Source of the DNA: Raillietiella orientalis
Lineage: Eukaryota
Direction: 5' to 3'
Length of the DNA stretch: 64,000 bases
Assembly: GCA_036172245.1 (NCBI GenBank)
Contig: JAYWIR010000049.1
Span: forward strand, 1-64,000
In this document: piece by piece, positions 22,045 through 62,627 of the stretch
Layout of the letters: each line of letters begins with the position of its first letter
How positions within the stretch are numbered: the stretch's first letter is position 1
The notes under the pieces: generated by a model
The model's database searches: none
What the model was told of the DNA's origin: nothing
The model's input: the letters and a program-made list of their open reading frames with translations, nothing else
Program-made: the position numbers and the translations under genes

Positions 22045-25039
22045 TTGCCACCCGGATATGCCGGGGCATTTATTATTCTAATTTTCTACAAAAATTAGAT
22101 AATAAAGTCTTTCAAAAGTTAATTGTGGGAAACACTTGGTTTTCCCGGCTTGGTTGACGTGTCTGTTGCCGGTGCATAGACCGGTTAGGTCCATTCCCGA
22201 GGCGCATGGGAAGGGAAAACTAAAACAAAAACAAACAAAAAGAGAGATAACGGGGGGGGAAACAGTTGTATGGGGAGAGGCGGGGCAGGGAAGGGATTAC
22301 TGAGCGCCTGGGTCGGTCCTCCGCATCCTGTTGAGGATGCAGTCAAGTTCACTTTTTATCGTGAAAGGTAGAGGCCACCTTGTCGCCGTCTCTAAAGAGA
22401 TCGTCGTCCAGTGGATGGCGTCCCTGCATCTTGGGCCTCTTCTTCTGGCGTGCCACCTTTGCACAATGCCGCGCACGCAGCAAAGGACTGCTAGAGACGC
22501 AGCGGGGCGCAGGCCGTCACGCAGAAAGAGGCGACGGTAAATTTCCATAGGGTCGCCTACTGGAAGGTGGAGGATTGGGGCGATTCGACTCCAGAGTCCA
22601 TCCAGGGCGACACACTCGAGGGTGAGATGCGGGAAGGTTTCTCTTTCTCCGCACTCGACACAGCAGGCATCCACATTTCCCAGTGTCCAGTGAGACAGGC
22701 GTGCTCTGCTTAACAGTCCCCAGTGCAGAAATAGCAACGCCGTCTCCTGCCGCTTCAACGGAAGTGTGGCGCAATCCCAACACGCTGGGGGCCACTTCAC
22801 CTCCTCCGCAGGTATTGCGAGCAGCTCTCCCCAGCGAGCAAGTCCGTGAGGCGGGACGCTCGGAGTGGCAGCGTTAGTGAGCTCCCGAGTCGTCCACGCC
22901 TTTAAAGGTTTTTTCCTGCCTCGGATGAGGCAGGACACTTCCCACGATGCCAGCTCGTTGCTGCTCCTACTGTTTTTCAGGGAGGACAGAACGGGGGCAA
23001 GGGGGCTGGAAGAAGCCCACAGAAACTTCCGGGGCGTGTTGATAATATCCTGCAGCGGCTGTCGAGCGTACGGTCCTCGTCGTAGGCAGTTGTATTCCGC
23101 CTCGCTCGTGCCGTTGATCTTAGCCCACCCGGAAGCTGACTCCTGAAGTCAGGCAGTGCAGTTCGCGGGGATGCAGGAGATCCAGGTATTCTCCCTCATC
23201 AGGGCGACCATCTGGCGCAAATCGGGGCCACAGTTGGAGAGGCTGCGCTGGTAGGCCACGAGGTTCGAGGACAATCCTTCGCAGCCGGTCGCTCTTCTGG
23301 CGACGAGCCGTGCCGGATCGCACAATGGCGTCATCCATAAGCTAGCCGCAAGGGCTAACTTTCGAATTGTTGTTTAAAGTTGGATGCGCTCCAACGTAAG
23401 GAGACCCAAGCCACCATCCCTGCGTGGAGCGCACAAGTCTTTCAATCGGACTCGCGACCTCGCTGTGCCCCAAAGGGCAGTCCTCAAGAGGGCTTTGGTC
23501 CGTCTCTGTATGATGGGAATGGCGGGGCAAACAAAAAGTAAGGGGCGAAGGAGGGGGGCCGCGAACGCGTTCCACACCGCGGCCCGCTCCTGCAAGTAAA
23601 ACTTGCTGTTCCGGAACGGGCCGATCGCCAACTCCACCTTTTGGAGACGGTCGGACCAGGCTTCTGCAACGCAGAAGTCCCCCAACGGAACGCCAAGGTA
23701 CTTGAAGCACCTGCCCGTGGGGATCCCCAAGCGGATCCAGTCCGGCCGTCCGGCCCACGCCGCATGGTTGAATAGTTGTGGTGATGTTGTAACGATGGAA
23801 GAACAGAGAGAACTCTGTTCACCTCGAGGCCCGTCCCGCGGCGCAGCAACTCAAAGAAATCTTCGAGCGCCGACGCCGGGGTGGACCCGGGGAGCAGGAG
23901 CAGAAGGTCGTCGGCGTAGGCCGACACGGCAGACGTGCCGGGACACGAGCTTGGCAGGGTTGCCAGCGTCTCCCTGTATGCCCTCAGCACCAGCTCGAAG
24001 TAGATGCTGAAGAGCAAGGGGCTCAGACTGTCACCCTGCCTTATGCCACGCCGAACCGGCACGCCGTACACGTGCCGGCCGCTAAAAGAGATGTTTATTA
24101 GAGCGAAGCGCCAGCAGGAGCTCAGGTAAGCCCGGAAGACGGCCGGGAATCCCAAGTGTTCCTGGAGCTCCAGAAGCAGTTCCTGGTCGACGCAATCGAA
24201 CGCTTTACGCAGATCGACTGCGACCGCAAGGGCACCGGGCGCGGCTCTTCCATGAAGGGCGTCCCCTCCCTGGTCAGAGGAGAATCCAGGATTCTCTTGA
24301 CCTCCCTGTTCTTCGCTTTGTTGCAACTGCCACCATGTACTGGCGAGGAACAGGTTGGCCTCCATGCTTCGTCCGGGAACAGCGTATGTCTGCTCCAGAC
24401 TCACCACGGATTCCGCCACCCGTCCCAGTCGCTCAGCCCAAAGCTTGGCAAGCAACTTCGCATCCGCATTCACTACTGTGATGGGACGCCAGTAGCCTAC
24501 ATTGCGATTGTCTCCTCCTTTCGGCAGGAGACCTACTACAGCTGACCGGAACGATTTGGGGACGTCCCCTTGTTCTCGGATCAGCATGCATAGCCGATGC
24601 ACCAGGGGGGCCAGCTCCGCCACGAAGCCTTGGTAGAACTCCGCGGGCAGACCGTCTTCCCCTGGTGCTTTTCTCTTTCGGAGCCTTCCGATGGCGGAGA
24701 CGATCTCCGCCATCGAGAAAGGCTCGCGAGTTCATGTGCCTGCTCCTCCTGCAGCGCGGGGGCGCCTTGCGGCAGCAAGCGCTGCTCCACGGCGCGCTCG
24801 GTTGTTCTACGCGCGTACAAAGAGGAGTAATAGTCCCGCAGGATGCGGTTTATTCTCGCCGGAGCTGAGCATTCTTGGCCTTGGGCGTCCAGCAAGCTGG
24901 GCGACCCGGATTGCCAGGTCTGTCGCTCAGCCCCAGCTTTATACTCCGCCAGGCGTCGAACGTCGGGAGTCCTAGAGTAAAGACGGGCGTGGTGGTATGC
25001 CCGGTCGTTCCTCAGCCCTCCGCCGAATCCCTTGGCGAG
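22045..25039 (-). mobile_element. Element E2, 3' segment: RT, C-terminal CCHC and 3' UTR
   Basis: KAPGEDGL, DLRKAFD, QGDSLSP, YADD, CVECGERETFPHLTLEC; terminus aataaatgccccggcatatccgggtggcaa. Confidence 0.9.
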
Positions 25040-25126
25040 TGGACGTGTGTTTCCTTCGCTCCCGAGTGAGTCGACAGGAAGCGGTTTTTTGTTGTGTTGT
25101 TCAGTGTGGAACATCGTTGGTGTCCG

Positions 25127-26880
25127 ATGGCAGCGATGCCTGAGGACACCACGATGGAGGTAGGTGTGGGGGAGGCTTGCCCACCCCCACAGCCTACAGA
25201 ATCAGGGGCGTCCGCCCCGGAATCGCCCTCGCCGCTCAAGGCGAGGAGCTGGAGCGCCATGGTGGCCGCGCCGAGCGCGGAAACCATGGCCGAGATGGCG
25301 GCCTACCGGGCAGCTGGGTACAAGCCCAGCTTGGTTTACCAGGTAGGCAATCTCTTTGACGGGCGAACTGCACGCGCTTTTTCGAAAGCGCTGCAAAACG
25401 CCAACGTGTTGGAAAAGGACCTTGACGGTCTATCCGTGCTAAGCGGGGGTCAGCGCGTTGAGGTTGTCTGCAAGGACATCACCTTGGCGCAAAGCTTGAT
25501 AACCACCCCGCTGAACGTGGACGGACGCAAGATCCTACCAGTCACGATGGACCGCTCCGTAGTGGTCCATCTGACAGGGATCACCAGCCGCATAACGCGG
25601 TCTGCGGTTGGTGATCAGTTAAGAAAGCACGGGGATGTTCACGCGCTTTGGCCAAAGGCCACAATCTTCGATGGCTACGATAGCCTTTTCGGAGGGCAGG
25701 CCGCCGCGCGCGTGACGGTGAACGAGAGTGGGCTTCCCCACAAACTAGAGGAAAATGGCGAAGTCGTAGACCTCTGGTACGTGGGGAAACCCCGCTTTTG
25801 TGGCTACTGCAATGCAGTAGGACACTTGCGCAAGCGGTGCCCGAACATTGTGTGCCACTTATGCGGGGAGAAGGCCACGTACTCTGCGTATGCCCTAAAC
25901 GCCCCACTCCAGTGCCGCCTGCTGCAAAGAAAGCACAGTCAAAACGCGGTAAACTGGTCGAAAGACCAAAAAGAGATACTGGCCGGCAGCAGCCGCTAGC
26001 CCCTGTTCCTCCCACACAGGCGTCGGAAGAAAAACCCTCCGAAGACGCGGGAGTCCAAGACGGCTGGCAGCTGGTCAAGGCCAGGAAGGAGAAAAAGGTG
26101 CACCCCGCGGAACCCGCGAAAGCGGTAAAAAAGACTGCCGGCAAGGCGAAAAAACCTGGGCCGCGTTCTAAGACCATGCGGGAATGTACGGTAGCACTGG
26201 AGCGCATAGCCGTTCCCGAGATTGCCACCCGGGGCGACGAGCCTTCCCTCGCCGTTTCCACCGCGCCCGAGGTTCGCGACGACGAACCCTCTGTTTACAC
26301 AGAGGGTGAGCCGCGCGACGCGCCGGTCGACACTGCGGACGCCGCGTTCGCAAAGGCGGCGGAGGAGCTCGCGGCCACGCTGGCGGAGCGTGAGAACCCC
26401 TCACGCAAGGCCGTGCGAAGGCCGGCTCCCGCGAAAAAGGCCCCCACAGGTGAGTCGGACCTAGGGGCCGGAAGTGCATCCTCCTCCTCGGAGGCACCCC
26501 CCAGGAAGTCGGGACGCAAGTCCCAGAAACCCAGGACGCGCCTCCCCTCCACCAGCGAGGAGGAGAAGCAGGAAGGTAGCGGTAGCGTGGGAATCCCGGA
26601 GGGGGAACTCCCACGCTCGGAAGCCGTCGAGCCGGCCACCCCCATGGAGGAGGGTGAGCAGGGGGGCGAAGCCCTCCCTGCAGTCGCCGAGCCTGAACAG
26701 CCCGCCCCCATGGAGGAGGGCCAACAGGTAGGCGCGACCCCACTTAAGGGTGACCCCCTCGACGCGCCGTTACCCATGGAGGAGGGGGACCAGGTGCACG
26801 CAGCGCCTGACCCTTCTCCTCCACCTAGCGTCCCGCCCCAACAGGTGGCGGACGCCGCATCGCCATCTTCCCAGGAATAA
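25127..26880 (+). pseudogene. G1 ORF1, gag-like nucleic-acid-binding protein (one frameshift near 25870)
   Basis: CGYCNAVGHLRKRC, CHLCGE..GHVLCVC; GWQLV; ECTVALERI; three PMEEG repeats. Confidence 0.88.
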
Positions 26881-29800
26881 CACCTGGGCTCGCCAGTCGC
26901 CGTCGGATTCGCGACGCCTGTTGGAACGTCAACGGGCTGCGCGACGACGGTAACAGGCGAGATACGGCCGACACCCTGCGTGAGCTCGACCTGGCCCTGC
27001 TGCAGGAGATCCACGTGATCACCGCGGCAGACGCCCAAGAGATCGAGACGATCGCGGGGGGTCGGCTGTATTGGCGGTGCGGCCTCCGCAACACCTGCGG
27101 GGTCGCGTTCTTCGTGAAGCCGGCCATCGACGCGGCCGTGAAGGGCGTGCGCTTCGATGACGACGTTCGGGTCGGTCAGCTGATTCTCAGCTGGTCCGAC
27201 TCGATCGAATTGATCGTCACGAATGTGTACGCCCCCAGCGGTAAACAGGGATACAGCGACCGTAACAGGCTGCTGGATTCCCTGAAGCGCGACTGGCTGG
27301 CGGACACGAACGTGCGGAAGGCTCACCTGATAGCGGGAGATTTCAATCTCCGTCTGGTAACAGGTGAGCCAGAAACACAAGAGAACGCGATGAACGAGTT
27401 GTGCGCCGCCATGCGTGCGCGCAACTTGTTCGCGGGTGAGAGGGGAATGGTCCGCAGCATCGACCACGTCTTCCTCGACGCTGACCTGTGTTCACGGGTC
27501 GGCAAACGGGGGAGAGTTGCGTCGACGTTGTCGGACCATTCCCGGTTAATTTTCGAGATGCGGCCTCGTGACAAGGGACCGCCATCCAGGGATTGGCGTC
27601 TGCCGGGGGACTGGACGCGACTCTCAGGTGCGAAGGAATACCTTCGCGAATACCTGAGAGGTGTCACGCTCCGGAATCTCAAGGACTGGGACCTTTTTAA
27701 GGAATCGGTCCGCGAGTTCTGTGAGCAGTTCCCCCTGGATCGCCTGCCCCCCGGATTCGGCGAGGGTGCTCGCAACCATCGGGCCTATTTACAGGCTCGT
27801 AGGTACGAGAGAACCCCAAATGTCCGTCGCCTGGCCGAGTACCGCGCCGGGGCCGAACGCCAAGCCTGGCAATCCGGGTCGGCCAGCTTGCTGGACGACC
27901 AGGGCCGGGAATGTTCGTCCCCGGCGTCAATACGGCATCTCGTGCGGAGTTTCTATTCCTCCCTTTACGTCAGGCAGCCCCCGGATCGAAACGCCTCTCG
28001 GCGCTTGCTTCCGGATGGCGCCCCGGCAATAGGGGAGGAGGAGATGGAAAGCCTCGACGAGCCTTTTACCACCGGCGAAATTCTCGCCGGTATCAAAAGG
28101 CTCAAGAGGCGTAAAGCTCCAGGGGAAGACGGCTTGCCCGCGGAGTTCTTTCAGAGCTTCGCGGAAGAGCTGGCACCCCTGCTGCTTAAGTTGATCAGGC
28201 TGATCCGAGACGAAGGCGATGTTCCCGCCTCGTTTCGGTCAGCCAGAGTGAGGCTCCTGCCAAAAGGGGGAGACCTTAGGAATTTGAACAACTGGCGTCC
28301 GATCACGATTGTGAATACGAACGCCAAGTTGATCGCAGGGCTATGGGCTTCGCGTCTGGGGCAGGTGGCAGAATCCGTAATTAGCCCGGAGCAGACTTAT
28401 GCTGTTCCCGGGCGAAGTATGGATGCCAACCTCTTCTTCGCAAGCACATGGGTGCACCTGCAGAGAAGAGAGAAGAAAGGGATAGGGAAAGTCGTCAACC
28501 CCACATTGGGGCCGCCAGCCGGGCTGGGAAGGGACCCCCGGGCGGGGAAGGGGGCCCTAGCGCTCGCAGTCGATCTCCACAAGGCGTTCGACTGTGTAGA
28601 CCAGGAACTACTCTTGGAGCTCCTGGGTCGCATGGGCTTTCCACCCTCCCTGATTTCCTACCTGCGCTCTTGCTGGCGGAATGCGATAATTACCGTCTCT
28701 TTCAGCGGTCAAAGGTGTATGGCGTGCCGGTGCGGCGGGGCATAAGGCAGGGAGATAGCCTCAGCCCCCTGCTCTTCAGCACCTACTTTGAGTTGGTGCT
28801 GAGAGCGTACAGGGTGACTTTGGCCCCATTGCCGAGCTCGTGCCCCGGCACGCCCGCCGTAGCAGCGTACGCCGACGATCTTCTGCTTTTGTTGCCGATG
28901 TCCACCCCGGCAAAGGCGGTCGGAGACTTCTTCGATCTGCTCAGCCGCGGGACCGGACTGCAGGTTAACAGGGCGAAGTCGTCGGTTGTGCCAAAAGGTG
29001 CGGCGTGGGCAGGGCAGCAGGACTGGGTCCGTCTGGGGATCCCCACGGCGAGGTGCTTCAAGTACCTTGGTGTGCCGTTGGGGGACTACTCCCCTGCGGA
29101 AGCGTGGTCCAGCTGCCTCCAAAAGTCGAGACGGCGATCGGCCCGTTCCTGGAAGGCAAGTTTCACTTGCCGGAACGGGCCGCGGTTTGGAACGCCTTCG
29201 CGGCCCCCATCCTCCGCCCCTTGCTTTGTGTTTGCCCCCCCACCGTGGAATCCAAGAAGAGGACGAAGGACCTCCTCCGTATCGCCCTTTGGGGCAAGGG
29301 GAGGCCCCGAGTCCCACTGAAGGACTTGTGCGCTCCGCGTCGGGACGGCGGTCTTGGCCTCCTGACGCTGGAGCGCGTGGAAAAGCAGCTGCGGTGGCGA
29401 ACCCTTGCCATCGCAGCGAAGATGTGGAGCACCCCTTGGTGCACTCCGGCCCGCCTCCTGGCCAGCCGTGTGTCCCGGTGCGATGGACTCGCGTCTTTTC
29501 TTCTGAGCCGTGGCCGGAAGTTGCGAAGATGCGGCCTACTGCTCGGGCGCATGGCAACATTGGCCAAGGAGAACAGCTGGATGGTGTGCTGCCCCGCCAA
29601 CTCCCCCGCCTGGCTGGAGGAGAATATTGGAACGTGGGCAGTAGTCAACCAGAGAAGCCACGAGACGTGGAATCGTCTCCGATGCAGCCCCTACGCCCGC
29701 TGCACGCTGCGGAATCTCCTGGAGTGTCCAGCAAGATGCACGTGGGCAGAGACGACCTGCCTAGCCACGGCGCTACCCTTCCTAAGGAGGGCACTTCACA

Positions 29801-30474
29801 GCACCCGGACGCCAAGGTGGCAAGTCTCCTGCTGCATCGAGGGACGGGAGAAGTTGATCAGCGGCTGGACAACAGGAGAACTGGCCGACGCCTCGACCCC
29901 GAGCGTCCAGCCGCGAGGATTATTAAGATGGGGCGAGCTGCTCGCCATCCCCAGGGATGAGCTGAAGTGGCCCCCGGTGATGAAGGAATCCAGGATCCTG
30001 CCCCTGAAGTGGCAAGAGTCGGCGTTGCTTTTGTTGCACTGGGGTCTACCCTGCAACGCGCGCCGCTTCCACTGGACGAGGGGAGCTGTGGATCCTGCGT
30101 GTGCCAGGTGCGGGGAGCGGGAGTCGCTTCCCCCCCGTATTGTGGATTGTGCTGCCCTCCGACCCCTTTGGGAACGGTTCGGGACGACCCTCGGGCTCCC
30201 TACGGGCAGCACCCCCAGAGACGTTCTTCGGCCCCTCTTCGTGAAGGACGCACTGCAGCCAGCCGCAGCCATCGCAGCCTTGTGCTGCGTCCGAGGCATC
30301 TTGGGGGCATGGAGCGACGACAACAACGAAGGAGTGGGTCCACAGGCGAGGGATTTCATCCCGTATGCCAAACGCTTCTTGCGAAGAGCTGCCGGATGGC
30401 CCCAACTGGGGAATATGCAGGCTGACCTCGAGGGCTTCGTTCGACGGATGGGCCCTCCCCACAGCGACCAGTGA
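26880..30474 (+). pseudogene. G1 ORF2: APE endonuclease, reverse transcriptase and CCHC (frameshifts near 28710 and 29120)
   Basis: ORFs 27015-28745, 28448-29320 and 29005-30474 join into EN (GDFN, IDH, SDH), RT (DLHKAFD, QGDSLSP, YADD, KYLG) and CARCGERES. Confidence 0.93.
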
Positions 30475-30550
30475 TCCCTTCCCTGCCCTCCAACTTCTTT
30501 TTGTTTGTTTCTTTTGATTTAACTTTTTGTCTCATCCCCATCCCCCTTCG

Positions 30551-30679
30551 CTGTCGGGGAGTGCCACGCCGGGCTGCGTCCCGGTGTCCCGACAGGTCCT
30601 GTGTCTACGGCCGTGGTGGGGCCTTGTACCACGCATGTAAAGTTTATCAATAAACGCCCCGGGCGTACCCGGGTGGCAA
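30551..30679 (+). other. Structured 3' UTR of G1: CTGCGT-loop hairpin, second hairpin, AATAAA and terminal cccggg-cgta-cccggg stem-loop
   Basis: Inverted repeats are visible, and homologues with compensatory changes occur at other element ends. Confidence 0.8.
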
Positions 30680-32062
30680 CGCCGAAACCTGGAGGGAGAC
30701 GGTTTAGGGGAAACTGGTCGCAGAAGTCGCGGGCTGAGCTCTTCAAGTCGTCGCAGTCCGCGAGCGACTGCAGATGGAAGCCTTGCAGGAACGAGCGAAG
30801 ATGTTGCGCTGCTCCTGCGAAGCGCAACCAGTCCCCTGGCAAACGCCACGCTGTGGAGGGTGGAGCTCTACCGCACGGGTGTATTTCTAGCACGAGCCGG
30901 CGATGGTCGGAAAGTTCGGATGGCACTGCCCCTCGATTTCCAACCCGCGAACACAGGTGGTTGTCGAGGAACATGTGGTCGATCCTCGTCTCCGTCCCGG
31001 CGTCACCGGCCAACAAGTTGCGCGCGTGCATGGCAGCGCACATCTCGTTGACCAGCTGTGCGTGAATGTCGGGCGCACCTGCCAGCAGGCGGACGTTAAA
31101 GTCCCCGGCAATGAGGTGCGCCTTTCGCATGTCTGCTTCGGCCAGCCAATCTCGCCGCAGGCCTTCGAAGAACGCAGTGCGTTCCCCGCGCCTGTGGCTC
31201 GTGCCGGGCGCGTACACGTTGGTCACGACGAGGTCGATCGCGTCGGACCACTTGGCAACAACCTGCCCGATTTGACCTTCCCCGTCGAAGTGCACGTCGC
31301 GCAGCGCATTAACGACGGCTGGTTTCAGCATGAAAGCCACACCACTGGTGTGGTCTCTCCCGTTTTGGTATACGAGATGCCCGCCTGCGATCGGTTCGAT
31401 TTCCTGGGCCTCCCCTGCGTGGAGAACGTGCGTCTCCTGCAGAAGCGCCAGGTCGAAGTCCCGCAGGCTGGCGGCCACTTCTCTCCTCTTGCCGTCGTCG
31501 CGCAACCCGTTGACGTTACAACAGATTACGCGCAGTCGCCGGCAGGAGGAGAGTCCACGCGTTGGTGTGTTTATTGTGCTTGCTTACCGTCCTCCACCTG
31601 CTGTTCAGCAGGCGGGAGTTGTGTATCCATTGCGACGGGCTGTTGCTCGCAAGGAGGCGGTCCGTCGGTGGTTGTGGTGGTGGTTGGAGGATCCTGCTTG
31701 GCCAGGGACGTCTCCGGCGAGGAGTCGCGAGACCTCGCGGACATCGCCTCCCCGTCGTCGTGGTCCGACCGCATTTCCTCCTCCGCCGGTGGAGGTGCGG
31801 AGCGCCGCGGGTTGCCTACCGTGCGGCCCGCTTTGCGCTTCGGGAGAGCGATAGCCGGAGCCTTGCCGGCTTCGGCTTCGGACTCGGAAGTCTCCGGTCC
31901 TTTCGCCTCAGCCGGACGCCTCAAGGCCTTCTTCAGGGCCTTGGGAGGCTGCTGGAGCATGGCTGCCAACTCTTCCGCCGCCTTGTTGAAGTCCCGGTCG
32001 TCGCTGCTCACGCTGGGCTCGCGACTTTGTCGCGGCGTCGGCGTTCGCGCGGCGGCGGCTTG
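30680..32062 (-). mobile_element. Element E2, middle segment: ORF1 C-terminus plus EN
   Basis: LQETH, NVYAP, AGDFN, RIDH, SDH; joins 34097 through TSD ggcggcggcttg. Confidence 0.88.
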
Positions 32063-34096
32063 TTCACACCCGGATGTGCCGGGGCATTTATTTCTTAGAA
32101 ATAAAATAACAGGAAAAATGTCGCGTGGCGAACCCGAAGGTTCACCACTCCGAAACAGCTTGCTGGTTACCGGCTCCGTGCCGGAGAGGTCTTTCCGATG
32201 CGCGGGGATGGGAAATAAAGAAAAACAAAAAGAAACAAAAAGTTCAAATGTGGGGGGGAACAAATGTTGTAGGGGTGGGAGGGCGGGGAAGGGATCACGG
32301 TGCGCGTGGAGAGGTCCTCTAGATCCTATTCAGTATCCGCACAAGCTGAGTCCTTTCAGCGCCCAAGTGGCGCCACTTGCAGACACTTCGCGCGAAAACG
32401 CGAGTCCAGTGTAAGGCGTTGCCGGTTGGCTGACGCCTTCTTCTGATGGCGTTCCAAGCCGCCACTATTCCTCTGATGCAGCAGAGGACTGCTACACTAG
32501 CGGGCGGGGACAAGGCGTCACTACAGAAGAGGCGCCTGAAAACGTCCTTTGGGCCGCATCCGCGCAAGTCCAGGATCGCCGCGAGACGATCCCAGAAAGG
32601 GCGGATGGCACTGCACTCGATGAGAAGGTGGGGGAAGGTCTCTTTTTCCCCGCAACGGTCACAATAAGGATCCACAGCCCCCCGGGTTGTGTGATGAAGG
32701 CGTGCTTTGAATGGAAGTCCCCAGAAAACCACAAGCAACGCCACATCCTGCCATTTCAGGGGGAGGGATGCGCTGTTCCAGGACGCTGGGGGCCACTTCA
32801 TCTCCTCCGGAGATAGTCCGAGTAGCTCGCCCCAGCGTCGAATTCCGTTGGGCGGGACACTCGGCGTCGCAGCGTCAGCTAGCTGCCGAGATGTCCACGC
32901 CTTTATCGATTGTGTCCTGCCGCCTATAGTGCAGGACACGGTTTATTTTCCCTGCTCGCTACTGTCCCTGGCATTCACAAGGAAGGGCAGCACTGGGGCG
33001 AGGAAGGTTATCAAGGCCCACAGAAGCTTGTCGTGGGACTGCACGATCTCCTGCAGCGTCCAGCGGGCGTGCCTTTTCATACAAGTGTTCCTTGTGCCCG
33101 CCGGAACGTGGATCTTTACCCAGGTGGAGACTGACTCGTGCAACCAGGCGGAGTAGTTCCTTGGGAGGCAGGAGATCCAGGCGTTCTCCCGAACCGCAAC
33201 AAAGATGCGTCGCAGCATAGAGCCACAGTATGATCTCCTGCAGACGCGCGCAGACAGAAACGACAAAAGTCCGCCGATTCCGCAGGCTCGTTGGGCCAGC
33301 AGGCGTGCTGGAACGCACCAAGGCGTGTCCGACAATTCTGCCGCAAGGGCGAGAGTCCTGAATCGAAGTTGTATTTCGATGCGCTCCAGCGTAAGTAAGC
33401 CAAGTCCACCGTCCTTACGTGGAGCGCACAAGTCTTTGAGCCTCACACGGGACCTCCCTTTGCCCCAAAGGACTGTGCTCAGGAGGCCCGCTGCTCGTTT
33501 CCGAATAAAATAAGGGGCGGGGCAAACAAAAAGTAGGGGGTGAAGGAGGGGAGCCGCAAACGCGTTCCACACCGCGGCCCGTTCCTGCAAGTAGAACCTG
33601 CCTTCTTGGAACGGAACGATCGCCAACGCTGCCTTTTGGAGACAGTCGGACCAGGCTTCTGCTGCGCAGAAGTCCCCCAACGGTACGCCGAGGTACTTGA
33701 AGCACCTGCCCGTGGGGATCCCCAAGCGGATCCAGTCCGACCGTCCAGCCCACGCCGAACCGACGAAGACCATGGACGACTTCGCCCTGTTCACCTCCAG
33801 GCCCGTCCCGCGGCGCAGCAACTCGACGAAGTCCTCGAGTGCACTCGCCGGGGTGGACCCGGGAAGCAGCAGCAGAAGATCGTCTGCATAGGCCGACACG
33901 GCAGGCGTGCCGGCACACGAGCTCGGCAGGGTTGCCAGAGTTACCCTGTATGCCGTCAGCACCAACTCGAAGTAGATGCTGAAGAGCAAGGGGCTCAGGC
34001 TGTCACCCTGCCGGATGCCGCGGCGTACGGGCACGCCGTACACGTGCCGGCCGCTGAAACCGATATTGATTGACGCGTTGCGCCAGCAGGAGCGCA
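32063..34096 (-). mobile_element. Element F: 5'-truncated insertion (RT 3' half, CCHC, 3' UTR) with a 12-bp TSD
   Basis: ggcggcggcttg at 32051-32062 and 34097-34108; QGDSLSP, YADD; CDRCGEKETFPHLLIEC. Confidence 0.93.
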
Positions 34097-35320: not shown

Positions 35321-38029
35321 ACACGCGTAGTCAAGCGCTACTTCTCCTCGTTGTACGCGGAGGAGCCCACGGAACGCAGTCTCTCCGAGCTGCTTCTTCC
35401 GACGGGTAACCCTGCTATCGACGAAGAGGAACGCGCTAGATTGGAATGGCCCTTCACGGCGGAAGAAGTATCTTCTGTCATAGCAGGCCTGAAGAGGCGT
35501 AAGGCGCGTGGGGAGGTTGGCCTGCCCGCGGAGTTCTTTCAGTGCTTCGCGGCGGAGCTCGTCTTCCTGGTGCTAAGCCTTTCCTCGCTGATGCGTGATA
35601 CGGGTGATGTCCCTGTTTCTTTCCGCTCAGCAAAGGTACGGCTCCTGCCGAAAGGCGGGGATTTGCGGCACCTCAGCAACTGGCGTCCGATCACATTGGT
35701 GAATTCGGACGTCAAGTTCTTCTCCAGGCTATGGGTCGCACGCCTGGGTAGATTCGCAGAGTGCTTGGCAAGTCCGGAGCAGACGTATGCTGTTCAGGGG
35801 CGGTCCATGGACGCAAATCTCTTCTTCGGGCGAACATGCTTCGAGCTGCAGCAGCGCGTAGCGCAGCAGAACCAGGCAGCCGAAATCGCCGCTGCCAAAG
35901 GTAAGCGGCGGTGTTGAAGGCACGATGGAACGCCGTGAGCCTTAGCGGTCGCCGTCGATCTCTGCAAAGCGTTCGACAGCGTAAACCAGGACCTCCTTCT
36001 GGATCTTCTGGGACGCCTAGGCCTCCCGACGCACCTCATCGCCTACTTGCGCTCATGCTGGCACCACGCGTTATGCTGTATATCTTTCACCTGGCGCCAC
36101 GTGTACGGCATTCCCATACGCAGGGGTATCAGGCAGGGAGACAGCTTAAGCCCCCTGCTCTTCAGCATCTTCTTTGAGTTGGTGCTGAGGGCGCCCAGGC
36201 TAACGCTGGCCAACCTGCCGAGCTCCTGCCCGGGAACACCGGCCGTGGCCGCCTTTGCTGACGACCTTCTCCTGCTACTGCCCATGCCCACCCCGGCGTC
36301 CAGGCTCGAGGACTTCTTCGAGCTCATTCTTCGGGGAGCATGCCTGAGCGTTAACAGGACGAAAGCAACCGTTGTACCGGTTGGCTCTACGTTGGAGGGG
36401 CAGTCCAACTGGATCCGCCTGGGGATCCCCATGGGCAGGTGCTTGAAGTACCTCGGCGTTCCCTTGAGCGCCTTCTGTTCAGCAGAAGCGTGGTCGCACT
36501 GCCTTCACAAGCACGAGACTGCTGTGGGCCCGTTCCAAGGCGGCAGGTTTCTCCTGTCGGAACGGGCCTTCGTGTGGAACATTTTCGTTGCCCCCCTCCT
36601 CCGTCCCCTCTTTTTTGTTTGTCCCCCTCCCTACTCGGCTAAGCGCCTAGTGCAACGCCTGTTGCGTAACGCCCTGTGGGGATCGACGAGGTCCAGGATA
36701 CGCCTGAAGAAGTTGGCGGCTCCTCGGCGGGATGCAGCTTCGGGCATCCTGACGCTAGAGCGGATCGGACTGCTAGTGCAGTTCCGCATGCTGGCACTTT
36801 GTGCGCAGCTCTGGACTACTCCCTGGTGTGCTCCAGCGCGGCTGCTGCTGCGGCGCTGCACGGGTGGCGACGGACTACGTTCGTTGCATCTGCGCACGGT
36901 GCGCGCCCAGAGAGGATACGGCTTTCCTTTGCAGCAGCTCGCCACGCTTCTAGGAAAGCATAAGTGGATCTCCTGCCAACCGACGAACTTCAACGCCTGG
37001 AGGCAGGAAGCCTTATCGTCCTGGGCAGCGCAACAGGATGTGTCCCGTTTGGAACTCCGTTGCGCGAACCTTTTCCCATACTGTCCAGTGAGGGAGGTGC
37101 TTGAAGACCAGGACCAGTGGACACGCCTAGCCGCTACGCCCCTCGCCGAAGCACTGTCTGCCCTGATGGTGCGAGATGACAGTGACCTGCCGGCGAGGTG
37201 GGAAATCACTTGCGAAATCGCAGGCGAAACCCGACTGCTGGGCGTTTGGCGGACTTGCGAAGTGGCAGACGCTGCCACACCTCGCATTCTTGCAAAGGGG
37301 CTTCTCCGGTGGAGTGAGCTCCTCGGGGTGCCCATTGATGAACTTGTGGTGCCTTCTGCGTGTTTATACGCAACTCTCTTCCCCCTTCGGTGGAAGCAGG
37401 ACGCTTCTCTGCTGGTGCATTGGGGTTTGCACTGCAACCAGCGGGCGCACCTGGTTTACGGAGGAGTTGCGTCCCCGAACTGTGCTAAATGCAAAGCGTT
37501 GGAAACGCTACCGCATTTCTTGTTTGAGTGCGGTGCCCTCCAGGAGCCGCGGCAGCGGCTGTCTTCAGCGCTCATGCATCCTGGACACACCTCACTAGAT
37601 TGGATGCTCCGCTTCTACACTCGTGGTGGACTTTCTCTTGGAGCGGTCGTTGCAATCATCTGCTGCGTCCGCGCCATTGTCAGGGCGCGCCACGTATTGC
37701 AGATGCGAGCAGTCCCAACATCGGTCCCCGACACCGCAGCCTGCAGCCTGCAAATGGCTGCCGGGTGGCCACATCTTGGGCAGAAGTGAGGACGGAGATA
37801 GGCGGCTTTCACCGCCAGTACTGAGAATAGGAACGGTTAGACTGTAAACCCCTGTCCCCGCCCTCGCACTTGATCTATTTATTAATGGTGGCCCCCTCTC
37901 CCGTTCCGAACTGTCAGTGTGCCCGGACTGCGTGCCGGGAATTCTACTCCCCATTTTCTGTTCCCCTTGCCTGGGAACACAGTTCCCTGTTGATATTATA
38001 ATAAACGTCCCGGTGCAACCGAATAATAA
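35321..38029 (+). mobile_element. Element H, 3' segment: RT (FADD in this copy), CCHC and 3' UTR ending aataataa
   Basis: ORF 36047-37789; followed by TSD acgacaacgctgca at 38030-38043. Confidence 0.92.
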
Positions 38030-39218
38030 ACGACAACGCTGCATTCCTTAATTTGCTCGCTTGCCTGCTGTTTTTTCTGGTGGTACGAGAGCTTTTTATC
38101 CATCCTCATCTCCTTCTTTGATTTTTTGGCCGTAGGCACCTGCCACCCAGGCTCCTGGCTTGTTCCTTCGACTTGTTCGGCGTTGCTCGCCGAGGTCTCG
38201 GGCGCGGCCTGGGCCTTGGGCGCGGGTGGCACAGCCTTCAAAGCAGCTTTCGCCGCCAGCCTTTTCTGCAGAAGCCGGGCACGTTTTTTAAGGCTTCTCT
38301 TGGAAAACACCCGCACTGCTGCTTTAGGGCACACCTCCCTCTTGTGGCCCATGATTCCGCATACTTGGCACTGCACGTTGGTACACCTCTTTTTGAGGTG
38401 GCCCGACGTATTGCAGAAGCCACAGTATTTCGGCTTCCCCACATACCAGAGGTCGACGGTTTCGCCTTCGACCTTCAGTTTGTGGGGAAGAGTGCATCCC
38501 TATCAAACCGTCAAGCGCGCACACGTGAGGCCGTGTTGCAGCCCCGTGTAGTCCTCGAAAGGACTAACTTTCGTCCACTGCGCGTGGACCGTTCCGTATT
38601 CCTTCAACGCGGCGCGAACCTGTTCCTTGCGCATCCGCGCGGTAACACCTAGCTGGTGGACCACCATGCTGCGGTCCGCCGTAATAGGGAGGAGCCTGCG
38701 CGTCTCCAGCACCACGGGGGTTTTAAGCAGTCGTTGTGCCAGCTCTGCTTGTTTGCAGATGACCTCAACGTACTGACCCCCGCTGCGGATGGTCATAGCG
38801 CTCAGCTCCTCCTCTTTAACATCGAGAGCACGCATGCCCTTCGAGAAGGCGCGCGCGCTCTCTAAAGAATATAAATTGCCTACCTTGTAGAACAATGAGG
38901 GGTAATACCCCTCCTCTACATAGGCCGACAATTCCGCCGCGGCTGCAGGCGATGGCGCCGACACAACGGCGCTCCACGCCCGCGCTGCAGCGGGGACCGA
39001 TTTTGTGGAGGCGCAAGCCCCCACCTCCATCGCCTTCGAGGTGGACGTTGCCGCCGCCCCCCGGCTTTCCATCGCCAGTAAGGGAGGCGTTGCTGCTGCC
39101 CCCGGGCCATTCCTGGTGGTCGCGTCAGGTATCGTTGCCTTAGCGACCACCGAACCACACGACGCTTGCACTGGGGGAGACTTCCTGGCACGAGGAGCAC
39201 CGAGAAAACACGTCCACC
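38030..39218 (-). mobile_element. Element A2, 5' segment: 5' end plus ORF1 N-terminus; continues at 18964
   Basis: GTGGACGTG start; knuckles; ORF1 reads ..IKECSVV here and continues VERIP at 18964. Confidence 0.9.
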
Positions 39219-39240
39219 CTGGAGCACGCAAGGCGTTCGA

Positions 39241-42200
39241 TTTTCACCCTGATTTCGCCGGCGCGTTTATTGTAAAATAAACTTTTACAAAGACGTGCGG
39301 TTGCTGGAACATTGCTCCAGCTACGCACGAAGAAACACAGAGCCTGCCGGGTCATCGGTTCGCAGACCGGTATGGTCCACCACGGCAGCAGGGGGAAGGG
39401 GGAAAAACAAAAAACAAAACAAAAAAAAAAAGAAAAGTTGAGAGGGTAAGGGAAGGGATCACAGTTGCTGGTGGTGCCGTTGCATCCTTTGCAGGATGCC
39501 GGCAAGCTCCTTCTGTATTCCTGGATCCAGATGGGGCCATCGGGACTCCCTCCTCAGCAACTGGGAGGCTGGCTGGATGGCACCCTGGTCGCGTTGTCCT
39601 CCCGTAGCCTTGCTCCAAGCGGTGACGATCCCGCGTAGGCAGCACAAAGCTGCTAACGAGGCCGCTGGCCGAAGGGCGTCGGCAACGAAGAGGGCTTCCA
39701 GTGCGTCCCTGGGGTTGCCGCAGGGGAAACCGATGGTTGCGGCAAAGCGAAACCAAAGGGGCCGAAGGGCAACACAATTCACTAGCAGTTGGGGGAGGGA
39801 CTCCCGTTCCCCACACCTGACGCAATTGGGGTCCACCGCTCCCCAGGTCCAGTGTTGTCGGCGGGCGTTGCAGGGGAGTCCCCAGTGCTGCAACAGGAGA
39901 GCCGACTCCTGCCATTTTAAGGGGAGGGCGGAAGTGTTCATGAGCACCGGGAGCCACTTCACATGTTCAATGGAAACATCCAGCAGCGCGCCCCAGCGCA
40001 GAAGTCCATTGCGAGGCGTACTCAAGTACTCAGCGTGTGTTAACTGGCCCGTCTTCCACTCTCCTATCTTCTTCTCCTTTCCAGAGATTGTTACTGTAAC
40101 CACCCACTTCGCCGCAACATCGCTGTCCAGGTCTGTCATCAGGGAGTTCAGCGCAGCAGCGAGGGGGGTTCTTCCTGCCCACGCTCGCTTCCTTGGTTCC
40201 TCCAGGATCTCGCGGAGTGTGCAATTTCTGTAACCCCCAAACAGGAACCGTCGTTCCTGTTGGGAGCGTTGCATGCCGAACTGTCCCCACGTCCAAACGG
40301 TTTCCTGCAACCATGCACTACCGTTCAACGGGCGACAGGTAAGCAATCCTGGGTTTTTCCGATACAGCGCAGCCACCCTCCGTAGCTGGAGTCCGTATCA
40401 GTTGACGCAGAGACGGAGTGCAAGAAATGTCGTCAGTCCCGTGTTGCCGGTGGCTTGTTGGAAGAGGAGACGTGCAGGGACGCACCAACAGATGCACCAC
40501 AACTCTGGAAGGAGTGCCGACAAGCGGAACTGGAGCTGAAGCTCCAGCCGCTCCCGCGTCAGGCGGCCCAGACCACCATCCGGACGAGGAGCGCACAAGT
40601 CCTATAAGCGGACTCGGGCCCTCCCGTTGCCTCAAAGGGCGATACGGAGGAGGTCCTTTGTCCGCTTTTTAATTCTCTCTGTGGGGGGGCAAACAAAAAG
40701 CAGTGAGCGGAGGGGAGAAGCCGCGAAGGTGTTCCAAAATGCGGCCCGTTCAGGCAGGAAAAACCTGCCGATTCGGAACGGGCCGATCGCCGTGTCTACT
40801 TTTCGGAGGCAGCCGGACCACGCTTCCGCAGGGGAGTAGTCCCCCAACGGCACACCAAGGTTCTTGAAGTACCTCACCGTGGGGATCCCCAAACGGACCC
40901 AGTCCTGCTGCCCTGTCCACGCCGCACCAACTGGCATCACGGACGACTCCGCCCTGTTCACCGTAAGTCCGGTTCCCCGATGCAGCAGGTCGAAGAACTC
41001 CTCGACCGCCGCACTCGGGATGGACATAGGGAGCAGCAGCAGAAGGTCGTCCGCGTATGCTGAAACGGCCGGCGTACCGGCACAGTCGTGCGGCAGGTGC
41101 GCCAGAGTTCCCCTGTACGCTCTCAGTACCAACTCAAAGTAGGTACTCAAGAGGAAGGGGCTCAGGCTGTCTCCCTGCTGGATCCCACGCCGCACCGGCA
41201 CGCCGTGCACGCTCTGCCCGCTGAAAGTAACATTGTTGAGCGCGTCGCGCCAGCAAGAGCGCAGATAGGCCACTAATAAGGCCGGGAAGCCCAAGCGTTC
41301 AAGAAGCTCCAGAAGGAGATTCTGGTCGACGCAATCGTATGCTTATCGCAAGTCGATTGCGACCGCAAGGGCTCCCTCCCCCAACCGACCATCCAACCCC
41401 TTGCCGGCGCACGCACCGGAATTCCGGCTGCGCACCAAGCTCCTTTCATGTTGGAGCTCTAGCCAGGTGGAAGCGTGGAACAGGTTCGCCTCCATGCTTC
41501 GCCGGGAACAGCATATGTCTGTTCCAGGCTGATGAAGATGTTGGCAACCCGTCCCAGACGCTCTGCCCAAACCTTAGCCACCAACTTGGCGTCCGCATTC
41601 ACTATTGTGATGGGACGCCAGTTGTTCATGCTCCTCAGATCTCCCTTAGGGAGGAGCCGCACCTTTGCAGAACGAAACGAGGCGGGAACGTCACCTGTTT
41701 CGCGTATCAGCAAGGTGAGTTGCTGTACCAGGGGAGTAAGCTCAGCCGCGAAAGTTCGATAAACCTCCGCGGGCAGGCCGTCCTCTCCTGGAGCCTTTCG
41801 CTTCTTGAGCTTTCCGATGGCCGATAGGATCTCGTCCATCGTGAAAGGCTCGTCGAGGGTGTTTCTCTGCTCCTCTCCGATCGCTGGAGCGCCTTCCGGA
41901 AGCAGGAGTCGTGATACGTTCCTCTCCGGAGGTGCCCCGGCATACAGAGAGGAGTAGTAACTCCGCAGCAGGCCGCGGATTTAGGCAGGTGCCGAGTGCT
42001 CCTAACTCTGATCGTCCAGTAAGCTGGCCGATCCGGACTGCCAGGCTTGCCTCTCGGCTCCCGCTTTGTATTCCGCCAGCCTGCGGATGTCGGGGGTCCT
42101 GGCGTAACGACGGGCCTGCAGGTAGGCTCGTTCGTTACGGACCCCGGTCCCAAAACCCGTGGGTAGGCGGTGCAGAGGGAACTGGTCGCAGAACTCCTAG

Positions 42201-43418: not shown

Positions 43419-46400
43419 TTTACACCCGGGTACGCCCGGGGCGTTTATTTTTGAAAAAAAAACAACTCTACATCCGCGGTACAAGGCCCCGCTCACGGCC
43501 ATATGCAGTGGACCTGCCGGGACGCCGGGACGCAGCCCAGCGTAGCGTTCCTCAGCAGCGAAGGGGGATGGGGATAAAACAAAAAGAAAAATAAAAAACA
43601 TAAACAGACAAAAAGAAGTTGGAGGGCAGGGAAGGGATCACTGAACGCTGTGAGGAGGGCCCATCCGTTGAAGGAAGCCCTTGAGGTCCGTCCGTATATT
43701 CCCCAGTTGGGGCCATGCGGCAGCTCTCCGCAAGAAGCGTTGGGCGTATGAGACGACATCCCTCGCGTGTGGACCCACTCCTTCGTTATTGGCGTCGCTC
43801 CATGCCGCCACGATGCCACGGACACAGCACAAGGCTGCGATGGCTGCGGCTGGCTGCAGTGCGTCCTTCACCGAGAGGGGCCGAAGAACGTCTCTGGGGG
43901 TGCTGCCCGTAGGGAGCCCTAGGGTCGCCCCGAACCGTTCCCAGAGGGGTCGGATGGCAGCACAATCCACAATAAGGTGGGGAAGCGACTTCCGCTCCCC
44001 GCCCATGGCACACGCAGGATCCACAGCTCCCCTCGTCCAGTGGAAGCGGCGCGCGTTGCAGGGTAGACCCCAGTGCAACAAAAGCAACGCCGACTCTTGC
44101 CACTTAAGGGGCAGGATCCTGGATTCCTTTAATACCGGGGGCCACTTCAGCACATCCGTAGGGATGGCGAGCAGCTCGCCCCATCTCATTAGTCCACGCG
44201 GCTGGACGCTCGGGGTCGAGGCGTAGGCCAGTTCTCCTGTTGTCCAGCCGCTGATCAACTTCTCCCTGCCTGCTATTTGGCAGGTGACTTGCCACCTCGG
44301 CTTCTGGCAATCCTGAAGCGCCATCAGGAGGTAGGGCATCGCCTTAGCAAGGGGGGTCGTCAACGCCCACCTGCGACTCCGAGGAAATTCCAGTATTTCC
44401 CGCAGGGTGCGGTTGGCGTATGGGCCGATTCGCAGGCAGTTCATGTAGTTTTCGCTCCTCCGGTTCAGCTTAGCCCATGTGCCAGCAGACTCCTCTAACC
44501 AGGCGGAGGAGTTGGCGGGGCCACAAACCATCCAGCCGTTCGTCTTCGCCAAGGTTGCTATGCGTCCGAGCATAAGGCCGCATCTTCGGATCTTCCGGCC
44601 AGGGCACAGAAGAAACGACGCGAGTCCTTCGCATCGGGACACACGCCTGGCGAGGTGGCGGGCCGGAACGCACCAAGGGGTGCTCCACATCTTCGCTGCG
44701 ATGGCGAGGGTTCGCCACCGCAGCTGGATTTCCACGCGCTCCAGCGTCAGGAGGCCAAGGCCGCCGTCCCGACGCGGAGCGCACAAGTCCTGCAGAGGGA
44801 CTCGGGGCCTCCCCTTCCCCCAAAGGACGATGCGGAGGAGGTCCTTCGTCCTCTTCTTGGATTCCACGGTGGGGGGGCAAACAAAAAGCAAGGGGCAAAG
44901 GATGGGGGCCGCGAAGGCGTTCCAAACCGCGGCCCGTTCCGGCAAGTGAAACTTGCCTTCCAGGAACGGGCCGATCGCCGTCTCGACTTTTTGAAGACAG
45001 CTGGACCACGCTTCCGCAGGGGAGTAGTCACCCAACGGCACACCAAGGTCCTTGAGGCACCTCGCCGTGGGGATCCCCAGACGGACCCAGTCCTGCTGCC
45101 CTGCCCACGCCGCACCTACTGGCACCACCGACGACTTCGCCCTGTTGACCTGCAGTCCGGTCCCACGGCTGAGCAGCTCGAAGAAGTCTCCGATCGCCTT
45201 CGCCGGGGAGGACATAGGTAACAGGAGCAGAAGGTCGTCGGCATAGGCTGCTACGGCGGGCGTAAGGGGACACGAGCTAGGCAAGGAGGCCAAAGTCACC
45301 CTGTAGGCTCTCAGCACCAACTCAAAGTAGGTGCTGAAGAGCAGGGGACTCAGGCTATCTCCCTGCCTGATGCCCCGCCGCACCGGCACGCCATGCACCT
45401 TCTGACCGCTGAAAGAGACGGAAATTATCGCATGGCGCCAGCAGGAGCGCAGGTAGTTGATCAAGGAGGGTGGGAAGCCCATGCGACCCAGGAGCTCCAA
45501 CAAAAGCCCCTGGTCTAGACAGTCGAACGCCTTATGGAGATCGACTGCGAGCGCTAAGGCCCCCTTCCCCGCCCGGGAGTCCATTTCCTGCCCTGCTGGC
45601 GGCCCCAAAGTGGGATTGCCGATTTTTCCTTTCCCTTCCTTTTGACACCTCTGCGCGTGCATCCACGTGCTCGCGAAGAAGAGGTTGGCATCCATACTTC
45701 GCCCGGGAACAGCATATGTCTGCTCCGGGCTAATAATGGATTCTGCCACCTGCCCCTGACGCGAAGCCCATAGACCGGCAACCAACTTGGCGTCCGTATT
45801 CACAATCGTGATCGGACGCCAGTTGTTCAAATTCCTAAGGTCTCCCCCTTTCGGAAGGAGCCTATCTCTGGCTGACCGAAACGAGGCGGGAACATCGCCA
45901 TCGTCTCGGATCAGCCTTGTCAGCTGAAGCAGCAGGGGTGCCAGCTCTTCCGCGAATAGAACTCCGCGGGCAAGCCGTCTTCCCCTGGGGCTTTCCGCCT
46001 CTTGAGCCTTTTGATACCGGCGAGAATTTCGCCGGTGGTAAAAGGCTCATCGAGGCTTAACGACTCCTCCTCCCCTATTGCCGGGGCACCATCCGGAAGC
46101 AAGAGCCGAGAGGCATCTTGATCCGGGGGCGCCCTGGCGTAAAGGGAGGAATAACAACTCCGCACGAGATGCCGTACCGACGCCGGGGACGAACATTCCC
46201 GGCCCTGGTCGTCCAGCAAGCTGGCCGACCCGGATTGCCAGGCTTGGCGTTCGGCCCCGGCGCGGTATTCGGCCAAACGACGGACATTAGGGGTTCGCTC
46301 GTACCTACGGGCCTGTAAATACGCCCGATGGTTGCGAGGACCCTCGCCGAATCCGGAGGGCAGGCGGTCCAGGGAGAACTGCTCGCAGAATTCCCGGACT

Positions 46401-46767
46401 GATTCCTTAAAAAGGTCCCAGTCTTGGAGATTCCGGAGCGTGACGCCTCTCAGGTATTCGCGAAGGTGTTCCTTCGCACCTGAGAGTCGCGTCCAGTCCC
46501 CCGGCAGACGCCAGTCTCTGAATGGCGGTCCTTTGTCGCGAGGCCGCATCTCGAAAATTAACCGGGAATGGTCCGACAACGTTGACGCAACCCTCCCCCG
46601 TTTGCCGACCCGTGAACACAGATCAGCGTCGAGGAAGACGTGGTCGATGCTGCGGACCATTCCCCTCTCACCCGCGAACAAGTTGCGCGCACGCATGGCG
46701 GCGCACAACTCGTTCATCGCGTTCACCTGTGTTTCCGGCTCACCTGTTAGCAGGCGGAGATTGAAAT
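43419..46767 (-). mobile_element. Element L (family G), 3' segment with a 730-aa open RT-CCHC frame (43638-45830)
   Basis: DLHKAFD, QGDSLSP, YADD; terminus aataaacgccccgggcgtacccgggtgtaaa; EN split at GDFN. Confidence 0.93.
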
Positions 46768-62356: not shown

Positions 62357-62627
62357 ACGCCAAGTTGACAGCAGGGCTATGGGCTTCGCGTCTCAGGCAG
62401 GTGGCAGATTCCATAATTAGCACAGAGCAGACATATGCTGTTCCCGGGCGATGTATGGATGCCAACCTCTTCTTCGCAAGCACATGGGTGCACCTGCAGA
62501 GAAGAGAGTAGAAAGGGATAGGGAAAGTCAGCAACCCCACATTGGGGCCGCCAGCCGGGCTGGGAAGGGATCCCCGGGCGGGGAGGGGGGCCCTAGCGCT
62601 CGCAGTCGATCTCCACAAGGCGTTCGA
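62357..62627 (+). mobile_element. Element N, segment 2, ending in the RT motif DLHKAFD
   Basis: Matches 28321-28591. Confidence 0.9.

Follow-up and report, generated by a model that had tools for sequence, protein, structure and literature searches.

Why does a short hairpin persist in the 3' untranslated region (UTR) of retrotransposons whose UTRs have otherwise diverged, and what might read it? The question is raised by the window, by which we mean the whole 64-kb stretch of DNA analysed here, in which a hairpin that we call HP1 is found at all 11 element 3' ends.

Retrotransposons in the window

The window has a G+C content of about 60% and is crowded with non-LTR retrotransposon copies on both strands. 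A domain scan of 10 long ORFs found RVT_1 in six and APE-type Exo_endo_phos in two, both above the cut-off; zf-RVT matches were weak, with two of the 10 ORFs scoring 17 and 19.9 bits against a curated cut-off of 27.5. A search of 5.8 billion proteins returned 222 relatives, the sole close one being P0001, which has 65% identity and lacks the C-terminus. None of the others exceeds 29% identity, and where these have names they are L1-like proteins, from vertebrates, plants and Mucoromycota. In the ESM Atlas, the clusters that lie nearest are L1-like families and "Transposon TX1" families. The elements have the features of the L1/Tx1 clade, namely APE, RT, a zf-RVT-like Cys-rich C-terminal region (below cut-off) and a separate ORF1, and we treat them as L1/Tx1-type LINEs on the basis of domains, relatives and Atlas neighbours rather than a phylogeny of reference elements. 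The first-pass annotation had placed the hairpin in the 3' UTR of the elements, a context that our analysis bears out for retrotransposons with APE and RT.

Three elements are bounded by target-site duplications (TSDs):

25031-30679, plus strand: element G1, with degraded ORF1/ORF2 containing APE and RT, bounded by a 10-nt TSD
56476-62355, minus strand: element O, the most complete copy, 5' end approximate, ORF1 with a zf-CCHC zinc knuckle, TSD flanks of about 14 nt
32066-34096: element G2, with a 12-nt TSD

ORF2 of element O comprises 440+793 aa with a single in-frame stop between the two parts. Self-comparison revealed 5'-truncated copies, nested and head-to-tail arrays, and insertions into older copies; the window is a multi-layer nest of insertions. 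One element, F (22049-25030), resumes at 30682-32065 and again from 34097 on, past the insertions G1 and G2. A plus-strand copy, N (54973-56475, 62354-62627), is split by the later minus-strand insertions O (TSD about 14 nt) and P.

Several junctions between copies are unusual. At two head-to-tail junctions (43421-43423 and 46765-46772), the 3' end of M abuts a 5'-truncated L, and the 3' end of L abuts a 5'-truncated K; a 14-mer beside the L 3' end recurs at 49886-49899 with three mismatches. M and L may have moved as a single composite, or the element may target junctions. K and P, which belong to the same family, both end and then run into the same 12 bases, TCGAACGCCTTG (39229-39244, 62616-62631). 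At P, TCGAACGCCTTG is the antisense of the RT motif codons K-A-F-D in the interrupted copy N (62354-62627), and at K, RT similarity beyond the 3' end stops after about 13 nt. The common flank could mean that the element inserts site-specifically into the RT motif of other copies, or that a P-like master copy gave rise to a short 3' transduction.

We located element 3' ends through a conserved tail, AATAAA(C/T)G(C)CCCGG, which gave 10 matches against 0.61 expected, and added D1 as the eleventh. G1/L, K/P and E/F are close pairs and D1 duplicates H, so the 11 ends represent seven lineages and not 11 independent copies. D1 and H lie in an inverted segmental duplication (2058-3291 / 37455-38688; 1234 nt, 94%) that contains both tails plus about 650 nt of flank. 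Because the shared duplication includes flanking DNA, D1 and H are one insertion copied later. Upstream ORF2 sequence (about 800 nt) gave a maximum-likelihood tree whose topology is (M,(H,D1)),((K,P),(O,(G1,L)),(G2,(E,F))); seven of eight inner branches are well supported.

HP1 is present at every element 3' end

All element tails share one order: stop codon, C-rich stretch, T-rich tract, C-tract, HP1, a second hairpin (HP2), AATAAA, a third hairpin (HP3), TG, two variable bases, and 2-4 A. In G1, this order reads as follows:

30472-30550, plus strand: segment before HP1, with the ORF2 stop TGA, conserved C-rich stretch, T-rich tract and C-tract
30551-30595, plus strand: HP1, cgccggg-CTGCGT-cccggtg, loop CTGCGT at 30574-30579, G-C closing pair; minimum free energy (MFE) -27.6 kcal/mol, z -2.18
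30551-30558 with 30588-30595, plus strand: outer stem of HP1
30566-30573 with 30580-30587, plus strand: inner 8-bp stem of HP1
30596-30648, plus strand: HP2 region, a variable second hairpin between HP1 and AATAAA
30649-30679, plus strand: AATAAA, HP3 (CCCGGG-CGTA-CCCGGG) and TGGCAA; the element ends at 30679

HP1 is built on CCGG-N / N'-CCGG arms. All 11 hairpins lie between the ORF2 stop and the element end, 72-110 nt upstream of the invariant AATAAA and 100-135 nt from the 3' end. The other 10 copies, with scores in bits and energies in kcal/mol, are:

43510-43562, minus strand: HP1 region of L; loop CTGCGT (43530-43535), G-C closing pair, U.G wobble at p4; 50.3 bits; -13.2
56559-56611, minus strand: HP1 region of O; loop CTGCGT (56579-56584), U-A closing pair, 7-bp stem; 57.9 bits; -12.9
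39340-39390, minus strand: HP1 region of K; loop CTGCGA (39360-39365), U-A closing pair, C.A mismatch in the stem; 53.2 bits; -4.2
62725-62775, minus strand: HP1 region of P; loop CCGCGA (62745-62750), U-A closing pair, A-U at p6; 51.8 bits; -9.5
32155-32206, minus strand: HP1 region of G2; loop ACGGA (32175-32179), C-G closing pair, 5-bp stem CCGGC/GCCGG; 33.3 bits; -8.9
14873-14925, minus strand: HP1 region of E; loop CTATGC (14893-14898), U-A closing pair, G.G mismatch at p5; 42.7 bits; -4.0
22154-22206, minus strand: HP1 region of F; loop CTATGC (22174-22179), U-A closing pair, 5-bp stem; 46 bits; -7.0
46850-46903, minus strand: HP1 region of M; loop CTGCGT (46870-46875), C-G closing pair, 8 bp with a bulged A; 40 bits; -8.7
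37900-37953, plus strand: HP1 region of H; loop CTGCGT (37928-37933), A.G at the closing position, 5-bp stem; 44 bits; -9.6
2793-2846, minus strand: HP1 region of D1, duplicate of H; loop CTGCGT (2813-2818), A-U closing pair, 6-bp stem; 42.4 bits; -10.8

The loop is CTGCGT in six copies (four of seven lineages), CTGCGA in K, CCGCGA in P, CTATGC in E and F, and ACGGA in G2. Re-reading G1, O, D1, M, L, H, K and P on the element strand confirmed every coordinate and sequence given for them in the first-pass annotation, including the loops, as well as its statement that E and F use a different one. Its list of copies missed G2 and counted D1 and H, which are not independent. It had also described the M stem as 3 bp (ggc/gcc), which proved too short: the stem is TTACC-A-GGC / GCCGGTAA, 8 bp with one bulged A.

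Stem compensation and loop conservation

By itself the hexamer CTGCGT does not stand out: it occurs 50 times where 39.6 ± 6.2 occurrences are expected, and three of 100 shuffles reach 50. The longer pattern CCGGNCTGCGTNCCGG, allowing at most two mismatches, has nine matches against 1.32 ± 1.09 expected, a count reached by none of 100 shuffles, and eight of the nine are UTR hairpins. RNAalifold, applied to the 11 hairpin regions, returned the inner 6-bp HP1 stem as the sole consensus structure. A covariance model trained on the 11 UTRs gives them 33-58 bits; no other match on either strand of the 64 kb exceeds 18.3 bits.

Pairing was measured on a MAFFT alignment of the 11 tails that was not fitted to any structure. 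A 16-pair structure has 70.5% of its cells paired, a figure that none of 500 shuffles attains (59.0 ± 2.3%), in a comparison where related rows can exceed shuffles without structure; in controls with slid partners, only 26.7-39.2% are paired. The inner helix is 80.7% paired across the 11 copies, and the outer stem, in aligned columns, 60.2%. Two central G-C pairs are invariant and hence uninformative either way. With an invariant stem core, CCGG/CCGG, the evidence for compensation comes from two pairs, the closing pair (p1) and p6, together with the outer stem.

At these two positions, changes on one side are matched on the other. The closing pair is U-A in five copies, C-G in two, G-C in two, A-U in one and a mismatch in one; p6 is A-U, C-G and G-C in two copies each, G-U in one, and other or unpaired in four. 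Counted by hand under parsimony, the ORF2 tree implies double substitutions on four or more occasions at the closing pair and on two or more at p6, each ending Watson-Crick. The proposal in the first-pass annotation that a compensated closing pair (U-A, G-C, C-G, A-U) holds a nearly fixed loop is upheld, on at least four tree events and with the stem as RNAalifold consensus; the one qualification at this position is the A.G mismatch in H. Its further claim of covariation in the outer stem holds for ctgtcg/cgacag (G1) versus ctgccg/cggcag (K), but this stem, CTGYCG/CGRCAG, is confined to G1, L, O, K and P and has a mismatch in O and another in P.

Mean identity between the seven lineages is 0.63 for HP1, 0.75 for the AATAAA-HP3 segment and 0.29-0.44 for the rest of the UTR, making HP1 and AATAAA/HP3 the two conservation islands. 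The loop CTGCGT is identical across lineages whose ORF2 C-termini are only 36% identical. These results support the conclusion that the HP1 stem is kept by compensation and the loop is nearly fixed, while the surrounding UTR diverges.

Could the hairpin nevertheless have no function, and reflect shared ancestry and 3'-end exchange between families, with pairing that stems from the self-complementary CCGG? Any two CCGG motifs pair, each tail has four of them, and whole-tail MFE folds mix them; moreover, the copies are few and related, and kinship alone can beat shuffles. We disfavour this reading and hold it to be very doubtful, given that p1 and p6 change on both sides yet stay paired in the events counted above, that pairing falls when partners are slid, and that HP1 is an island of conservation inside a divergent UTR. 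In addition, the stems differ among M, H/D1, O and G1, which makes recent exchange of segments unlikely.

RNA or DNA as the folded form

Single-sequence folding of the 51-54-nt HP1 region is not exceptional, with z from -2.18 to +0.67. The MFE fold is HP1 in just two copies, G1 and O (inner stem), and in part in H; as a local hairpin, HP1 forms in each of the 11 copies, with energies of -4.0 to -13.6 kcal/mol. Folds of whole tails were set aside as evidence, since they mix the four CCGG-based arms and are inconsistent between copies.

In K, P, E and F, the MFE fold is an alternative hairpin that pairs (G/A)UGGACC with GGUC(U/C)(G/A)(C/U). It competes with HP1 by drawing on a portion of the 5' arm of HP1 and on the first bases of the loop. 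The outer pair of this alternative, G-C in K/P but A-U in E/F, amounts to one compensated pair.

Comparison of strand energies favours the sense strand in four of 11 copies and the antisense strand in seven. Thermodynamics does not identify sense RNA as the active form, because the antisense folds equally well. This raises the alternative that the hairpin works as single-stranded DNA, with first-strand cDNA using it in template switching or second-strand priming, or as a protein-bound DNA palindrome. Besides the strand energies, sense A.C mismatches (antisense G.U) in E, F and K are about as frequent as sense G.U pairs in G1, L, K and P, as such a role would allow. A sequence-specific double-stranded site, however, is hard to reconcile with a closing pair found in all four Watson-Crick states, and the mapped insertions (G1, O, P, K, G2) all lie outside hairpins. 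We found no precedent for a role of this kind in the literature examined and regard it as highly improbable. That the hairpin is an insertion target was likewise rejected, the mapped insertions sitting elsewhere. From its context, we infer that the active form of HP1 is RNA.

Other parts of the 3' tail

The copies terminate precisely, in 2-4 A and without long poly(A). TSDs of 10-14 nt in G1, O and G2 fix three 3' ends as GGGTG-NN-AA, 21-26 nt past AATAAA. The G1 duplication consists of CGCCGAATCC at 25021-25030 and CGCCGAAACC at 30680-30689, 10 nt with one mismatch.

HP3 has the general form CCCCGG, 4-6 nt, CCGGG; copies K, P, H and D1 retain HP1 but have a degenerate HP3. HP2 is a hairpin in every lineage, with unrelated sequences; its z is about 0 in G1, L and O and lies between -1.5 and -3.1 in the other eight of the 11 copies.

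Three further observations concern the tail as a whole. About 20 nt right after the ORF2 stop (TGATCCCTTCCCTGCCCTCC-like; G1 30472-30500) are conserved among families G1, L, O, K, P, G2 and E, and the long T-rich tract comes next. An extra A/U-rich hairpin lies just 5' of AATAAA in E, F, K and P (14790-14830, 22075-22110, 39272-39290 and 62659-62677, respectively) and is absent from the other lineages. The final 28 nt of M (46772-46799) are 100% identical to those of O (56482-56509), and the ORF2 C-termini of the two are about 36% identical. This terminal identity points to either very strong constraint on the terminal hairpin or exchange between families.

Searches for further copies and transcripts

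The Rfam search suggested by the first-pass annotation gave no support from known families, among which is UnaL2: there were no matches in the 64 kb at gathering score, and at E<=10 the G1 tail matched only an unrelated sRNA model (E 5.8). A protein-profile scan of metagenome contigs, built on a four-sequence alignment, gave 143 pattern matches, none of which was confirmed, and so yielded no further copies. The tail DNA pattern AATAAAYGCCCCGGN{4,6}CCGGGTG matched two metagenome and two prokaryote-genome sequences, none with an upstream T-rich tract or HP1; the four resemble bacterial coding sequence and were rejected by eye as element copies. The contig of P0001 was dismissed as a source of UTR sequence, since the C-terminus is absent and the contig therefore cannot hold the UTR. 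Among public sequencing runs, one DNA run contains the stretch (share 0.52) and no RNA run is listed with it; 30 contigs of that DNA run, of about 100 nt, held no usable linked variation in the hairpin. No partner SINE with the same tail was found in the 64-kb window, where all 11 model hits follow an ORF2.

HP1 as a candidate recognition signal

What, then, would a structured RNA at this position do? Precise ends combined with two conserved structured modules in a UTR that otherwise diverges are characteristic of stringent LINEs. There, a 3' stem-loop is recognised by the ORF2 protein that the element itself encodes, and reverse transcription begins at a set position (PMC3472496; PMC4176376). 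HP1 has the traits of such stem-loops: a 3' UTR site in an autonomous element, island conservation, a compensated stem and a precise element end. We propose, with a probability of roughly 0.55, that HP1 is, or is part of, the recognition signal for ORF2 protein; the case rests on 11 copies in seven lineages, all within one window. We infer that HP1 acts as RNA, is bound by ORF2 protein and is needed for retrotransposition. Under the proposed model, HP1, probably with HP3, would serve as the cis signal by which the endonuclease and reverse transcriptase of ORF2 recognise their own transcript. The bound protein would be positioned so that target-primed reverse transcription begins at a fixed point at the extreme 3' end, and the elements would have precise ends with 2-4 A and no long poly(A) because this start is fixed. 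The stem would need only to pair and could therefore vary with compensation, whereas loop bases read directly would be held fixed. Families with other loops (E/F CUAUGC, G2 ACGGA) may have shifted specificity. That the E/F loops confer family specificity, as the first-pass annotation had suggested, is speculation; it would fit the loop-specific recognition described for zebrafish L2 (PMC4176376).

A different division of labour within the tail deserves consideration. HP3 is more conserved than HP1 and lies at the extreme 3' end, and it could be the main reverse transcription signal instead. HP1 would then be a conserved RNA structure with another role in the transcript, for example as an enhancer of cleavage/polyadenylation at AAUAAA, a stability or export element, or a packaging site for the CCHC ORF1 protein. 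Identity in the AATAAA-HP3 segment exceeds that in HP1 (0.75 against 0.63), HP3 adjoins the precise 3' end, and the last 28 nt of M equal those of the distant O. The position of HP1, 72-110 nt upstream of AATAAA, and the zinc knuckle of ORF1, an RNA-binding module, would also suit such roles. However, HP3 is degenerate in K, P, H and D1, yet these copies retain HP1, and no sequence feature points specifically to processing. Moreover, in the stringent LINEs described to date (PMC4176376; PMC3472496), a conserved 3' UTR stem-loop with a fixed loop is a reverse transcription signal. We therefore judge it unlikely that HP1 serves another role and HP3 alone is the recognition site.

The recognition reading also has a more elaborate variant, in which HP1 would belong to a family-specific tertiary switch as one of its states: the HP1 loop would form a kissing contact with the HP3 loop, and in some families the competing hairpin would sequester it. 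In most lineages the HP1 and HP3 loops are complementary over 4-5 bases (none in G2, two in K); the best runs add up to 28, where shuffling within the loops gives 21.3 ± 2.1 (p 0.004, eight related rows). E and F changed both loops jointly, and their HP3 loop finds a good partner only in the HP1 loop of E/F; most cross-lineage HP1/HP3 loop combinations, by comparison, pair equally well. We consider a switch of this kind quite improbable. If it did exist, a co-evolving loop-loop code would set which family's reverse transcriptase copies which RNA within a self-targeting LINE nest.

Comparison with known systems

L1-clade elements are usually viewed as relaxed, poly(A)-dependent retrotransposons. 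To our knowledge, examples in this clade with a structured, specifically recognised 3' tail are few, and most of them have been inferred. Our best reading, drawn by analogy, is that HP1 belongs in kind with the known 3' recognition stem-loops of stringent LINEs, its function being deduced from that likeness. Judged against the literature and Rfam, the HP1 sequence, the three-hairpin tail with AAUAAA and the host element group appear undescribed.

The closest parallels within the L1 clade come from plants. Stringent recognition has been proposed for the L1s of green plants, the green-alga case being drawn from a tail shared by a LINE and a SINE (PMC3472496), and a monocot L1 lineage has a conserved 3' stem-loop with compensatory changes and fixed loop bases (Ohshima 2012, PMC3472496). 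The monocot LINE1-1_ZM group and the green-algal L1-1_CR, where recognition was inferred, resemble the window elements in clade, conserved 3' region, compensated stem, fixed loop and proposed role in reverse transcription (PMC3472496). They differ in the loop, which is UCU with a 3' CGAG in maize (PMC3472496) and CUGCGU here, a comparison made by description only. The maize and algal elements also end in poly(A) (PMC3472496), in contrast to the 2-4 A of the window elements, and their case rests on a tail-sharing SINE (PMC3472496), whereas no partner SINE was seen in the window.

For the L2 clade, such recognition is known from experiment. As reported by Hayashi 2014 (PMC4176376), the region of zebrafish L2 ORF2 between endonuclease and RT binds the cognate stem-loop, reading the stem generally and the loop specifically. 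The eel UnaL2 and zebrafish ZfL2-1 and ZfL2-2 (PMC4176376; Nomura 2006, PMC1636434) resemble the window elements in a short 3' stem-loop with a variable stem and a specific loop, in family-specific cognate loops, and in precise 3' ends without long poly(A). Their hairpins instead sit in the final ~60 nt, ahead of short repeats, and the elements belong to clade L2, not L1/Tx1. Their function is known from experiment, while HP1 is known from sequence.

Two further comparisons can be drawn. The stem-loop in the human L1/Alu 3' UTR has, in the prediction of Grechishnikova and Poptsova 2016 (PMC5135761), a loop of 5-7 nt and a stem of 8-10 bp, with a bulge at a distance of 4-6 bp from that loop. 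The geometry of HP1 is similar to what that text describes: a 6-nt loop, an inner stem of 5-8 bp, an internal loop and an outer stem, with the M bulge 3 bp from the loop. Human L1 is nevertheless of the relaxed, poly(A)-dependent type, and its stem-loop is, in the same text, a computational proposal (PMC5135761). Nested arrays are likewise described for Zepp/ZeppL clusters in Craig 2021 (PMC8226300), and the window resembles them by description of the array pattern only. Zepp and L1-1_CR end in poly(A) (PMC3472496, Table 1), which the window elements do not. Tx1-type site-specific LINEs of the L1 clade (PMC3472496) include the Tx1 family found among the nearest Atlas clusters of the window elements.

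Against this background, HP1 is an expected feature of a LINE rather than the mark of a novel element type, and the main value of the window lies in its series of loops. Here, seven related lineages share one tail architecture with compensated stems and three loop variants, forming a compact natural series with which template choice by an L1/Tx1-type reverse transcriptase, and the point at which its copying begins, could be tested.
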